A stretch of 64,000 bases of DNA from a virus (IMGVR_UViG_3300028840_006907:384001-448000), one strand, 5' to 3'. Counted from the stretch's first letter, positions 53,302 to 64,000 are shown. Made by a program: numbers and translations. Notes: a model not told the origin generated them from the letters alone.

Positions 53302-54006
53302 ATGGATCGTTATCAAATAGCTGTAGGTAAAAAACCTGATCCAAAAAAAGAGGAGAAAATCCATACTTTTGGTTTTGAGAACAATAGTTTAAATAGCAAA
53401 GAATTAAAATTTGCCCTTTTTAGACCCCCACTTGATTCAATTCGTAGAGTAGGTATTGTTTATGAAGATCCTTCCAAATTATTTGTAGCTACAAATGTTC
53501 ATTTCCATAATCGTTATTTCCTATGTAAATCCAAGAATGGTAGACAAGAAATTTGTTGTGAAAAAAAGGGAAAACCCCTTTTTAGAATGGCTTGCGTTGT
53601 TATTGACTATGGAATTCCTAAAAATAACCAGGAACTAAATGACTTTCAGGTTTTGCCTTGGACATTTGCTAAAATGTTTTATAAAAAACTTGATGATTTA
53701 CATAAATTCAATAGCTTACACGAGAATGATTTCATATTGAGACGTTCTCCAAATGATCAGTTTAGAAATTATGAAATCAGCGCATTAGGAGGTTCCATCT
53801 GGCGTTCTTCGGATAGGGTTGATGAGATAGCTAATATGTCTGTTCCTATAAGAAATAATATGAAAAAGATTTTAGGAGCCGATCTTTCGGATTTTGAAAT
53901 ACGTCAGCTATTGGAGGAACCAGACAGATACAATAGAAGAAATCAAATTAATAGGAATATTAGTACATTTGAGTCAGAAGTGAGTAATATGTTGGATTCG
54001 ATATAA
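53302..54006 (+). CDS. hypothetical protein; member of the N-terminal MxRYDIxLxKKP leader family
   Basis: N-terminus MDRYQIAVGKKPDP matches the leader of six genes at 61.6-64 kb. Confidence 0.45.
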   Translation: MDRYQIAVGKKPDPKKEEKIHTFGFENNSLNSKELKFALFRPPLDSIRRVGIVYEDPSKLFVATNVHFHNRYFLCKSKNGRQEICCEKKGKPLFRMACVVIDYGIPKNNQELNDFQVLPWTFAKMFYKKLDDLHKFNSLHENDFILRRSPNDQFRNYEISALGGSIWRSSDRVDEIANMSVPIRNNMKKILGADLSDFEIRQLLEEPDRYNRRNQINRNISTFESEVSNMLDSI

Positions 54007-54015
54007 GGAGGTTAT

Positions 54016-54399
54016 ATGTGGTGGATTTTTGATTTAGATGCTGAAAATCCAGGAATGTTATTATTGAAAATATTTCTCATGATCACTTTTTTAGGAGTTT
54101 CTTGGTTGAGTTATGAATTCTATCCAGATATTCTCGGTTTAAAAAGAGAAGCAGTTGTAAATAGTCATCAATATATTGAGGCAAGCAGAAGTAAACTTTC
54201 GAAACTGGCTACTGAGTATCGGTCAGCTTCAGTTGATATTGCAACTTATAAATCTGCTGAAGGTGATTTTGAGGAATTAATTGAACAATTAACTGCTCAG
54301 AAAATAGCCATTAAAGATCAGATAAAAACAGAAGTTACAAAAATACCAGAAAATGAAATTCCTTCAGAGGTAGTTAGAATATTGGAGGAAGAAGAGTGA
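54016..54399 (+). CDS. small membrane protein (N-terminal TM segment)
   Basis: 127-aa ORF, SD AAGGAGG upstream, hydrophobic 'LLLKIFLMITFLGVSWL'. Confidence 0.4.
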   Translation: MWWIFDLDAENPGMLLLKIFLMITFLGVSWLSYEFYPDILGLKREAVVNSHQYIEASRSKLSKLATEYRSASVDIATYKSAEGDFEELIEQLTAQKIAIKDQIKTEVTKIPENEIPSEVVRILEEEE

Positions 54400-55055
54400 A
54401 AAAGAAATGGCCTTTAATTTTAATAATATTTATGTCGTTAATGATGATTAACAGTGATAGTGACTGTGATTCTCAAGAACGTGAAGATAGAGCTTCAGTA
54501 AGGAAACAGCAAGAGCATTATCGTATAAGTCAACCAGTGCCTTTTTATGAATGGAGCATTGAACTTGATGCAGCTATCCAAATATATGATGCTAGGGTTC
54601 GGGATCGGGTAAGAACTTGGACAGTATGGCGTTCTGATTATGGTTTGATCGAAGGTCATTGTGCTTCTATTGGTTATCCTATTCCTTATGATGTTCAGTT
54701 AACCAATCCTCTTAAACCTGCTTATAATAGCAGTGGGTCTGTTGTAGAACAGGCAGAACCCAGTGGCCTTTATTCTTCTCATAATTCAATAGCTACATGG
54801 GTAAGAATGGTTCTTAATGTCAGAGGAAAAACAATGGTCACTCCTGTTTATATAGAATCAAAAGTAACTTGTTACGCGGTCCCTATAACAGTTGACTATG
54901 AAAAAAATAAAGTAACTATAATATCTGATGTAAAACCTTCTATTGTTTTAAAAGACAATGAGGCAATGTATAGAAAGAAAAAGTTAAGTGCACAGGATTC
55001 AGTAAATTTACAGAATCAGGTGGATAAATTGAAGAAAAAGAATAGTGATAAATAA
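54396..55055 (+). CDS. secreted/lipoprotein candidate, tandem paralogue A
   Basis: GTG start after GGAGG; signal peptide then Cys (…MMINSDSDC); core nearly identical to the 55086 product. Confidence 0.5.
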   Translation: MKKKWPLILIIFMSLMMINSDSDCDSQEREDRASVRKQQEHYRISQPVPFYEWSIELDAAIQIYDARVRDRVRTWTVWRSDYGLIEGHCASIGYPIPYDVQLTNPLKPAYNSSGSVVEQAEPSGLYSSHNSIATWVRMVLNVRGKTMVTPVYIESKVTCYAVPITVDYEKNKVTIISDVKPSIVLKDNEAMYRKKKLSAQDSVNLQNQVDKLKKKNSDK

Positions 55056-55085
55056 TTAATTATCTTTTGAAAATAGGAATAAAAA

Positions 55086-55655
55086 ATGAAAAATAAGATC
55101 CAAATAATATTAGTAATTATAATGTCAATCTTTTCGATGAATTTCGTTTGTGATTGGCAGGAACGTGAAGATAGAAAATCAGTAATAGCACAACAAGATC
55201 ATTATAGAAAAACGCAACCGGTGCCTTTTTACGAATGGAGCATTGAGCTTGACGCAGCAACACAAATTTATGATGCTAGGGTTCGGGATAAGGTGCGTAC
55301 ATGGACCGTGTGGCGTTCTGATTATGGCTTAATTGAAGGTCACTGTGCTTCGATAGGATATCCTATCCCTTATGACGTTCAATTAACAAATCCACTTAAA
55401 ACATCCTCAGATGGGGATGTCATTGAGCAAGCTGAACCAAATGGCCTTTATTCATCTCATAATTCCACAGCTACCTGGGTAAGAGAGGTAATAGAGATTA
55501 ATGGTAAAACAGTTGTAACTCCTACATATATAGAATCCAAAGTAACTTGTTACGCTTATCCTATAAAAGTTGATTATGAAAAAAACAGAGTTATTCGGAT
55601 GCCTAATGTAGCACCTTCAATAATATTGAAGGATAATAAACCCAAAAAGAAATAG
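55086..55655 (+). CDS. secreted/lipoprotein candidate, tandem paralogue B
   Basis: Signal peptide then Cys (…SMNFVC); 'QPVPFYEWSIELDAA.QIYDARVRD.VRTWTVWRSDYGLIEGHCASIGYPIPYDVQLTNPLK' shared with paralogue A. Confidence 0.5.
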   Translation: MKNKIQIILVIIMSIFSMNFVCDWQEREDRKSVIAQQDHYRKTQPVPFYEWSIELDAATQIYDARVRDKVRTWTVWRSDYGLIEGHCASIGYPIPYDVQLTNPLKTSSDGDVIEQAEPNGLYSSHNSTATWVREVIEINGKTVVTPTYIESKVTCYAYPIKVDYEKNRVIRMPNVAPSIILKDNKPKKK

Positions 55656-55673
55656 TGAAACAAGGTAGATGTA

Positions 55674-62430: not shown

Positions 62431-62837
62431 GTAGATATGATATTATAAAAGGGAAAAAAGTGCCTATAAAACGTGATCAACCTAATTTAATAATGGGGGT
62501 TGATATAGGGAGTGCTGATTCAGAAACAGTTGTAGCTTTAATAGCGAAGCTTCAGAAAGAACAAAATGAAAATATTGAAATAGTGGGCATCTCAAGAGGG
62601 CATACGAAAAGAGGTTTTCTTCATGAGCATCCAGGACTTCAACAACGATTAAATATTGGCAATGATCATGTAATTGTGGATCGAGGGGATTGGGAAAGAG
62701 CTAGGCAAACTTTAACGGGGATTGATGGGACTTATACTAATCTTCCTCCACCTTCTTCACCTCCTTTACATAGAGGAAGGACTGTTCCTGATTTAAGTAG
62801 GTATAATCTTTCAAGTTTAAATATCAGCAATTCTTAA
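62427..62837 (+). CDS. leader-family protein (N-terminus MSRYDIIKGKK) with C-terminal HxHP...HVIVxRGDWExAR domain
   Basis: 136-aa ORF; C-terminal domain shared with the 62846 product. Confidence 0.45.
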   Translation: MSRYDIIKGKKVPIKRDQPNLIMGVDIGSADSETVVALIAKLQKEQNENIEIVGISRGHTKRGFLHEHPGLQQRLNIGNDHVIVDRGDWERARQTLTGIDGTYTNLPPPSSPPLHRGRTVPDLSRYNLSSLNISNS

Positions 62838-62845
62838 GGTAATGT

Positions 62846-63472
62846 ATGGGGCGTTTCGACATAATACTTAATAAGAGATCTCTGAAAAAAGTTTCTGGAA
62901 AAGAACCTGATGATTTGAAAGAATCAGAGGTAAAAAGAATCGAGATAGCTTTATTTCAAGACGCTATTAATGTAAGATCTTCTCCTGAAGATGCAATGAC
63001 TATAAATAGAAATATGAATGTAGCAGGAGCACCAGCAGTTAGTATTATTCAAGTAGAGATTGAAAATGAATATAATGTATCTGTTGGAGATGCGGTTGGT
63101 GTTAATTCAATTGGAGAAATTGTTCCAATTATTAATGAGAGTATAATACCTATTGGTATTATATCAAATATATTAGATATATCTTGTTGTCGTGGTGTAC
63201 TTCATATTCATCCAGATACACAATCTCGATTAAATCTTGATGAAAATCATGTTATTGTAAATAGGGGTGATTGGGAAATAGCTAGAGAACTTCTTGTTCA
63301 AAATGGTTATAACAAAGATCTAGAAAGTAATTCGTCTCTTCCAACTATAAATCTTGAGTCAAATAGAGAATTTAATGATTCTGCTGATGCAAGTGAATTT
63401 GATATGAATTCGGACGATTCTAATGAGTCATTTAATCCTGATAATAACTGGGAAGATGATTTACCCTTTTAA
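62846..63472 (+). CDS. leader-family protein (N-terminus MGRFDIILNKR) with C-terminal HxHP...HVIVxRGDWExAR domain
   Basis: 208-aa ORF; 'LHIHPDTQSRLNLDENHVIVNRGDWEIAR' vs 'LHEHPGLQQRLNIGNDHVIVDRGDWERAR' in the previous gene. Confidence 0.45.
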   Translation: MGRFDIILNKRSLKKVSGKEPDDLKESEVKRIEIALFQDAINVRSSPEDAMTINRNMNVAGAPAVSIIQVEIENEYNVSVGDAVGVNSIGEIVPIINESIIPIGIISNILDISCCRGVLHIHPDTQSRLNLDENHVIVNRGDWEIARELLVQNGYNKDLESNSSLPTINLESNREFNDSADASEFDMNSDDSNESFNPDNNWEDDLPF

Positions 63473-63484
63473 TCGAGAAAATAA

Positions 63485-63628
63485 ATGAATCGATATGGTA
63501 TAGTTTTAAATAAAGAGCCGAAAAAGAAAGAGTTAAATCAGAAAATTAATAATAGAGTTGATGGTCAAAAAACTGTGAATTATAGAGGAATTAGGAACAT
63601 CACAGGTATAACAGGAGCTATGTGGTAA
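63485..63628 (+). CDS. leader-family mini-protein (47 aa, N-terminus MNRYGIVLNKEP)
   Basis: Translation by eye; TAATG overlap with the next gene. Confidence 0.35.
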   Translation: MNRYGIVLNKEPKKKELNQKINNRVDGQKTVNYRGIRNITGITGAMW

Positions 63629-64000
63629 TGAATAGATTTGATATAGCACTGAATAAAAAGAAACCAGTAGAAAAAACTATAAATAAAGTTAAAGGATCTT
63701 TATTAAGTAATATAGTAAATCGTTTTCAGAATAAGTCAGATGGTTCTAGTAATACTCAAATACCTCCAATTGGTCTAGAAAGACAAATAGAGAGAAATCC
63801 TGGTAATTGGGATTCTCCAGATAATTCTAATCAAACAAGAATGCTTCAAGGTCAGACAGGTACTCAGATAATTCCAGGGGTTACTCATATGTTCGGTGTA
63901 ACTGGTACTCAAGGGGTTCGAGGACAGCCAGGTCTTACTATTTCTTCTCAAGGTCAACTTGGTATTGATATCTCTTCTCCAGAACAGGAAGAATCAGCTC
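63628..64000 (+). CDS. leader-family protein (N-terminus MNRFDIALNKKKP), 3'-truncated by the window end; contains a short collagen-like Gly-X-Y run
   Basis: ORF open to the window edge; 'GVTGTQGVRGQPGLT'. Confidence 0.4.
   Translation, partial: MNRFDIALNKKKPVEKTINKVKGSLLSNIVNRFQNKSDGSSNTQIPPIGLERQIERNPGNWDSPDNSNQTRMLQGQTGTQIIPGVTHMFGVTGTQGVRGQPGLTISSQGQLGIDISSPEQEESA

Follow-up and report, generated by a model that had tools for sequence, protein, structure and literature searches.

The 64,000-nucleotide stretch IMGVR_UViG_3300028840_006907:384001-448000 (the window, with positions counted from its first letter) comes from a huge tailed phage of ~470 kb (469 kb) and carries seven genes whose products begin with almost the same short peptide, referred to here as the leader or tag. 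The first-pass annotation of this DNA had listed the seven N-termini, and all of them were found where it had placed them, with the letters exactly as given. The genes are as follows.

53302-54006, + strand: gene 1, 234 amino acids (aa); leader MDRYQIAVGKKP at 53302-53337
61622-62122, + strand: gene 2, 166 aa, GTG start; leader (V/M)NRYDIILGKDPPP; P-loop nucleoside triphosphatase (NTPase) body (GSRNSGKTT)
62131-62430, + strand: gene 3, 99 aa; leader MNRYDILLNKKP; body without a match; leader score 30.5 bits
62427-62837, + strand: gene 4, 136 aa; leader MSRYDIIKGKKV; start overlapping the preceding stop (ATGA)
62846-63472, + strand: gene 5, 208 aa; leader MGRFDIILNKRS; acidic C-terminal tail
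63485-63628, + strand: gene 6, 47 aa; leader MNRYGIVLNKEP; leader score 31.0 bits, the highest among the window members
63628-64000, running past the window end, + strand: gene 7, 232 aa at full length; leader MNRFDIALNKKKP; Gly-X-Y-like stretches in the body

The seven leaders follow the pattern M-x-R-[YF]-D-I-[ILAV]-L-[NG]-K-K-P. Every leader opens with whichever start codon comes first behind an in-frame stop (ATG in 6/7, GTG at 61622), with the stop lying 1-13 codons upstream. A 16-column hidden Markov model (HMM) of the leader was scored on stop-to-stop fragments of the window and its flank (81 kb in all); the members scored 23.4-31.0 bits and the best other fragment, the antisense of one leader, scored 12.8 bits. 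The motif was found at no further start of an open reading frame (ORF) in the 64 kb window. An eighth, weaker member, a gene for a 131-aa protein beginning MDRFEIAVHF, starts ~320 bases beyond the window end, and we regard it as a degenerate leader gene because it has orthologues at locus L026 (MDRYKIAIGKK, 6.7e-15) and locus L003 (MSRYKIA, 5e-11).

The same annotation had called the seven ORFs otherwise dissimilar, which proved correct except for the proteins encoded at 62427 and 62846. With the leaders removed, these two were the sole related pair (blastp 6e-13; phmmer 1e-12) and are thus paralogues beyond the leader. Searches of the seven proteins against Pfam and PHROGs gave no significant match; the weak matches were to AAA_14 and TK (Pfam) for the 61622 protein and to collagen-like families (Pfam, PHROGs) for the gene 7 body. 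Identical copies of the gene 5 protein occur on 469 kb and 23 kb contigs from different samples.

Profile searching for further members, which the first-pass annotation had proposed, recovered many beyond the window. When 1.84 billion representative proteins were searched exhaustively with the profile, five matched at E<=1e-3, all five with a leader copy at residue 1 or no more than 12 residues from it. The best-scoring leader match was N-terminal by this measure (within 12 residues of residue 1) in 4/5; in the remaining protein, P0003, it lay at residue 34, in addition to a copy at residue 1. Two of the five carried a tandem second copy and one an extra C-terminal copy. A degenerate DNA pattern run over JGI metagenome contigs identified 31 loci, and a profile scan of all fetched loci yielded 54 distinct tagged proteins (median 100 aa) in at least 38 unrelated BLAST families on ~30 metagenome contigs. 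Two tag-bearing contigs exceed 440 kb, and one of 441,848 bp has several tagged genes (L048, L049). Tandem arrays are common, e.g. six tagged genes in the 10-kb locus L026 and 5/9 genes in L043. The leader is thus widespread, and across phages its first 12-14 residues have the consensus MNRYDIALGKKPPP (M-N-R-Y-D-I-A-L-G-K-K-P-P-P).

Other searches were less productive. A pattern scan of 185,579 prokaryotic species in GTDB, with one genome each, found a single credible leader gene, on a Fibrobacterota metagenome-assembled genome (MAG) contig that may be cellular or phage; it encodes a repeat-rich protein that looked MORN-like by eye. The IMG/VR pattern scan that required Asn at position 9 had no match, and a wider pattern gave only one true locus. 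A word-indexed protein search with the short leader alignment produced no candidates, and the string 'MNRYDI' had no match in the literature searched. Judged from its sequence and distribution, the leader looks like an undescribed sorting or docking tag.

The first-pass annotation had also argued, from differing codon choice among the copies, that conservation lies in the protein and not in a repeated DNA element, and both points were borne out. Arg3 is encoded by CGT, AGA, CGA and AGG in the window copies, and among 50 distinct gene starts, in which it is invariant, by all six Arg codons (AGA 15, CGT 11, CGA 10, CGG 7, AGG 4, CGC 3). Leu8, found in 45/50 of these starts, is likewise encoded by each of the six Leu codons, and at Gly9 the four Gly codons occur in nearly equal numbers. 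Over codons 2-12 of the window copies, pairwise identity peaked at the second codon position (0.67) and dropped to its minimum at the third (0.46). In the 45 bases preceding the window leaders, identity was only 30%. A repeated DNA element or promoter cassette was therefore rejected, given the free synonymous variation and the unrelated upstream DNA. Because synonymous codons vary while the peptide is kept among the 50 starts, the motif is real, translated and under purifying selection at the peptide level. The same conservation through synonymous change across distant phages disposes of the concern that the true start codons lie downstream and the motif is never translated; the possible counterpart of the GTG-started 61622 gene, which uses ATG, also speaks against downstream starts. 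Leaders were no more alike within genomes (0.569) than between them (0.607; permutation p 0.95, for loci that were found with the consensus pattern, which is a bias). Thus neither recent copying of leaders within a genome nor co-evolution specific to each phage is apparent, and the pattern fits a single conserved partner.

In residues 11-30 of the tagged proteins Lys is enriched 3.5-fold and Pro 2.7-fold, Gly, Tyr, Ile and Arg are depleted, and Pro occurs at positions 12, 13 and 14 in 30, 23 and 14 of the 50 starts, respectively. This composition argues for an extended, disordered linker, with a length of ~5 to 70 residues, between the leader and the body. No convincing membrane segment was found in the 38 family representatives, and the tagged proteins look soluble. 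The tag is modular, in that orthologues exist with and without it in both the 53302 family and the capsid protein family described below. P0002, an orthologue of the 53302 protein with 56% identity, retains the leader (MDRYKIALNKKP), and a leaderless homologue at L049 (1978-2601; phmmer 1.5e-27) has its start at the position corresponding to residue 19. A possible counterpart of the 61622 protein, at position 8893 of L055 (MNRFDIILGKESS...GPRGSGKTT), has an ATG start and the same layout (E 0.038 for the leader-stripped bodies), and these tagged P-loop NTPases gave weak matches to Terminase_6N and ResIII.

Of the tagged families recovered, the largest consists of HK97-fold major capsid proteins, 330-364 aa in length, of the same type as phage G gp27. 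Two of its members matched PHROG 2522 'major head protein', P0004 at 6e-44 and P0003 at 8e-25, and 2/5 exhaustive-search matches are capsid proteins of this kind. The AlphaFold 2 (AF2) model of P0004, which had a mean predicted local distance difference test score (pLDDT) of 76, matched the HK97 prohead (2e-11) and encapsulins (~1e-9). Its best match among viral models was gp27 of Bacillus phage G (Foldseek 3.4e-27, 31% identity; tblastn 2e-42), the annotated major capsid protein of that 498-kb phage. Results from PHROG, AF2, Foldseek and tblastn thus agree in placing the P0003/P0004 family in the HK97 fold and among homologues of major capsid proteins. Relatives found by tblastn were phage G gp27, gp334 of Tunturiibacter phage Tunturi_5, which adjoins a head maturation protease gene, and a protein of LR745208.1 (a 485-kb uncultured phage), all of them leaderless. 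The tagged 330-364 aa proteins belong with these relatives to the gp27/PHROG 2522/Pfam Phage_capsid_4 group, whereas gp27, gp334 and the LR745208.1 protein have neither the leader nor an N-terminal extension, and the tag with its linker is an add-on in one capsid subclade.

Within the family, the leader and a 20-70-residue linker precede the conserved N-arm in P0003, P0004, P0009, P0013, P0017 and P0018; P0010, P0016 and P0019-33 lack the leader, and that of P0008 is degenerate. Loci L036 and L043 each encode two capsid paralogues, both tagged. Copies of the tag away from the N-terminus are rare and, besides one in the 60-aa protein P0005, are confined to capsid proteins. A tandem second copy is present in P0003 and in one paralogue at L036 and at L043; two capsid lineages have two copies. 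A C-terminal copy, RNRYAIALGKKFA, occurs in P0004 (L017, 10001-11095), which ends …PPPGRIPKGRNRYAIALGKKFA. P0008 starts MNRFKILKN and ends RNRFQLLRQT. The N- and C-terminal copies may pair, or the C-terminal copies may be remnants of fused downstream genes. A gene for an HK97-fold shell protein and tagged genes occur together in L017-L020, L021/L043 and L036.

A 73-aa tagged gene upstream of the capsid gene was considered as a decoration protein and rejected, as its product has no similarity to phage G gp26. In L036, L043 and L057 the tagged capsid genes stand among genes for glycosyltransferases, methyltransferases, UDP-glucose dehydrogenase, epimerases and a nucleoside 2-deoxyribosyltransferase-like protein, surroundings unlike a classical head module. 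These neighbours may indicate glycosylation of the capsid.

The bodies of most tagged proteins had no match in any library. The matches obtained were to a GAD domain (6e-20) and, weakly, to the PolyA_pol head domain, which is nucleotidyltransferase-like. At L029 and L033 a conserved tagged array comprises two family-2 paralogues, the GAD-domain protein and the PolyA_pol-head-like protein, and L029 also encodes a full-length untagged protein that looked by eye like a CCA-adding enzyme, which suggests that tRNA-related enzymes are represented here by tagged stand-alone domains. For the 53302 protein, the gene context, a Cys/His cluster and an acidic tail are a lead that the body is probably a single-stranded-DNA-binding or recombination protein; at L049 its leaderless homologue adjoins three ORFs that were read by eye, with no family scan, as RecA-like, SbcCD-like and Cas4-like. 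The AF2 model of the 53302 protein, built from a two-sequence alignment, had a pLDDT of only 35.

Taken together, the distribution of the tag led us to favor the hypothesis, to which we give a probability of about 45%, that the leader is an N-terminal docking peptide for one conserved partner in head assembly. The tag would be a modular address, a 12-14-residue docking peptide followed by a flexible Lys/Pro-rich linker on otherwise unrelated bodies. A clade of uncultivated large and huge phages would use it to label dozens of families, in several of these phages including the phage-G-type capsid protein. Each tagged protein would bind the same head partner (possibly the scaffold or core, the maturation protease or the inside of the shell) and would thereby be built into proheads to become an internal or ejected protein. 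The binding partner, the packaging into virions and any cleavage are inferred.

A role in head assembly is favored because the one strong functional clue to the partner is the capsid protein, whose family is the largest among the carriers and alone has several copies of the tag. The orientation of shell proteins also favors it: in HK97-type proheads the shell protein's N-terminal extensions point inward. Those of Family 1 encapsulin shells do so as well (PMC8346489). The proposal in the first-pass annotation that the leader is a capsid-targeting or cargo-type peptide is supported as far as it concerns a modular N-terminal peptide with a linker, on at least 38 unrelated bodies and on capsid proteins; the connection to vaults that it drew found no support.

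Several observations weigh against this interpretation. Within the ~91 kb that we read of the window phage there was no tagged capsid protein, and the capsid homologues from a separate word-indexed search all lay on contigs of other sizes than this phage's. The tagged genes of L049 lie within the block of ORFs next to the leaderless 53302 homologue that were read by eye as recombination genes. Several bodies, e.g., the 53302 protein, the GAD domain and the weak PolyA_pol head, look like cytoplasmic, nucleic-acid-related proteins and are therefore less easily squared with a purely capsid-internal role. In Family 2A encapsulins the shell N-terminus points outward (PMC8346489), and that of the tagged capsid protein could face either way. 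In the AF2 model of the capsid protein P0004 the leader had low confidence and was docked nowhere, and inspection by eye showed no conserved cleavage site of the protease type downstream of the leader, no formal test having been made. We hold the hypothesis tentatively because some bodies look cytoplasmic and because no cleavage site is evident. A broader formulation, to which we would give somewhat less than even odds, is that MNRYDIALGKKPPP and its Lys/Pro-rich linker form one N-terminal sorting signal that sends the capsid protein, DNA/RNA enzymes and orphan proteins to a single assembly, which might be the prohead interior or another phage-built compartment.

Two neighbors of the leader genes bear on the alternatives.

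51710-53299: AAA ATPase gene (PF00004, 3.9e-24), directly upstream of gene 53302
56804-59245, + strand: major vault protein (MVP) homologue (Pfam MVP_shoulder 1.4e-23, Vault_3 3e-11)

The main rival, which we consider unlikely, is that the leader docks to a hub outside the capsid, a conserved factor of host or phage through which many phage proteins would be recruited or regulated in the cytoplasm: a chaperone of the Hsp70/DnaK or trigger-factor type that meets the N-terminus as it emerges, an AAA+ unfoldase or a component of a replication factory. Such a hub would accommodate the probable DNA/RNA-metabolism proteins among the tagged bodies and the position of gene 53302 immediately 3' of the AAA ATPase gene. 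A hydrophobic core between basic residues, as in the leader, resembles chaperone-binding peptides, and the failure of leaders to co-vary with the genome fits a very conserved partner that might belong to the host. However, relatives of the AAA protein at L004 and L005 (33-39% identity) have no tagged gene within 10 kb, and the closest one, at L003 (60%), is accompanied only by the weak leader-like start MSRYKIA (6.8 bits). Nor does a hub account for the capsid proteins being the largest group of carriers and the only ones with two copies, and no tagged cellular protein was found among the 185,579 species genomes, save for the one gene on the Fibrobacterota MAG contig. The vault has less in its favor, and we regard it as highly improbable that the tag loads cargo into a vault-like particle made by the MVP homologue. 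The MVP shell gene that the first-pass annotation placed near the leader genes is genuine by Pfam, and lies 2.4 kb upstream of the tandem leader array and 2.8 kb downstream of 53302, but beyond this adjacency in one genome nothing in the flanks that were read (+/-10 kb) linked the tag to MVP, and the two may still share genomes at a greater distance. No leader above 7.4 bits was found within +/-10 kb of 11 loci with MVP relatives, no MVP gene was found in the fetched DNA of ~40 leader-bearing loci of other phages, and capsid proteins are tagged in phages where no MVP was seen. Known vault cargo, moreover, is recruited through a folded interaction domain; short N-terminal peptides are not known to serve this purpose. 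The MVP relatives themselves (37-47% identity) are encoded on 11 IMG/VR viral contigs of 29-429 kb (L006-L016).

The remaining alternatives concern processing, translation and precursor peptides. In staphylococcal phage 80alpha the capsid and scaffold proteins reportedly share a short N-terminal extension that copies ribosomal protein L27 and is cut by the host Prp protease. A propeptide of this kind, removed by a dedicated protease so that the tag controls maturation and not location, would suit a short, strictly N-terminal peptide that the major capsid protein shares with other phage proteins and that is retained from phage to phage whatever the body, but we think it distinctly unlikely. The carriers number two in 80alpha and at least 38 families here, the linkers vary in sequence and from ~5 to 70 residues in length, with no conserved cut-site residue noticed by eye after them (no formal test was made), and the GTDB scan, with its narrow pattern, found no host protein with this N-terminus. 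Very unlikely, in our view, is a translation-level element, in which the nascent peptide, often ending in KKPPP, would tune early elongation, through polyproline stalling that EF-P relieves, or re-initiation in tightly packed operons. Pro is indeed frequent at positions 12-14 and the genes are tightly packed or overlapping, but the invariant residues R3, I6, L8 and K10 precede the prolines, PPP is missing from 7/8 copies in this phage, and the C-terminal and tandem internal copies make no sense as an initiation signal; a signal in the mRNA is excluded because synonymous sites vary freely. Hardly credible is the idea that the small tagged genes encode precursors like those of ribosomally synthesized and post-translationally modified peptides (RiPPs), with a conserved leader for a modifying enzyme and a hypervariable core. 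It would account for the small genes (47-140 aa) that stand in tandem and combine a constant N-terminus with a variable remainder, but not for the tag on capsid proteins of 330-364 aa, on a protein of 234 aa and on P-loop NTPases; no maturase family was present among the scanned neighbors, and the leader is shorter than typical RiPP leaders.

The hypothesis of a head-assembly tag invites comparison with two known kinds of targeting peptide, which it appears to resemble in function while belonging to neither family. In phage T4 the capsid-targeting sequence (CTS) is all that is conserved among highly diverse internal proteins (PMC3012670), and like the CTS of IPI, IPII and IPIII the tag is a peptide of about ten residues at the extreme N-terminus and the sole conserved part of diverse small phage proteins. 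It differs from the CTS in having no sequence similarity to it, in its Lys/Pro-rich linker with no cleavage site noticed by eye, and in its presence on at least 38 families that include the major capsid protein and probable nucleic-acid enzymes; the window proteins had no internal-protein match in Pfam or PHROGs. Encapsulin targeting peptides include N-terminal and repeated ones (PMC8346489) and are likewise short terminal peptides on flexible linkers, which in encapsulins direct unrelated proteins to an HK97-fold shell, and the tagged shell protein matches encapsulin structures. However, this shell is a phage capsid protein by its similarity to gp27, is encoded in genomes with tail genes and is thus not a non-viral shell. 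In addition, the shell protein is itself tagged, the motif is unrelated to TVGSL-type peptides, and, unlike in encapsulin operons, no shell gene was seen near the tagged genes of the window in the 91 kb read.

In huge phages orphan proteins number in the hundreds and their destinations are almost wholly obscure; in many uncultivated phages the tag defines a subset of them that can be listed from sequence with a small profile. Because the tag appears portable, the hypothesis of packaging and ejection is open to experiment. If it is true, a targeting strategy like that of T4 would have arisen independently and on a much larger scale, and the peptide would be a new loading tag for HK97-type nanocontainers. 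If the broader sorting-signal formulation is true, these phages would encode a sorting code that is unrelated to known targeting peptides and transferable to reporters. Even if the partner is not the capsid, the tag would still define a new network based on a short linear motif in infected cells.

The window has a GC content of 31-38%, with nearly all long ORFs on the + strand. Proteins identical to those of the window are encoded on contigs of 469,260, 469,541, 469,617 and 388,651 bp from several samples; in INPHARED, megablast with the region gave no match and tblastn with the AAA protein no close relative. The first 38 kb of the window form a tail module encoding a tape measure protein (PHROG 167), a tail protein, a baseplate hub, Baseplate_J (1.5e-18) and a baseplate wedge component. 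It is followed by replication genes for an SNF2 helicase, a DnaB-like helicase and a family A DNA polymerase with a LAGLIDADG insertion, and further downstream by genes for the AAA ATPase, a NADAR protein, the MVP homologue and DUF5662.

A number of these genes have features of their own. The tail-module protein encoded at 25444-29520 (1358 aa) contains four BNR/YCF48-like repeat stretches (PSII_BNR, 7e-27) and may be a receptor-binding or glycan-binding tail component. In the DNA polymerase (44090-47878, 1262 aa) DNA_pol_A is matched in two stretches with LAGLIDADG_3 at residues 812-877, which suggests an intein or homing-endonuclease insertion. The adjacent paralogous genes at 54396-55055 and 55086-55655 (219 and 189 aa) encode proteins whose hydrophobic N-termini resemble signal or lipoprotein peptides and which share a long core that is almost identical (…QPVPFYEWSIELDAA…GHCASIGYPIPYDVQLTNPLK…), with no family match. 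The NADAR-domain protein (55893-56729; 1.5e-51) has three tandem 11-residue repeats (RRNNTMNNEN-R/K) C-terminal to the domain, and homologues with ~60% identity are encoded in two leader-bearing loci (L055, L056).

Outside the window, ~6-7 kb upstream of its start, an actin-like protein (Pfam Volactin, with a faint match to MreB) is encoded next to a ThyX gene (L024, 3029-4045); a phage cytoskeletal element could indicate spatial organization of the infected cell. Beyond the leader array, ~1.9 kb past the window end, lies a DUF4423 gene (L001, 9386-10216). DUF4423 has undergone paralogous expansion in Fibrobacter, and this gene, with the single GTDB leader gene, is a weak hint that the host lineage is Fibrobacterota or close to it.

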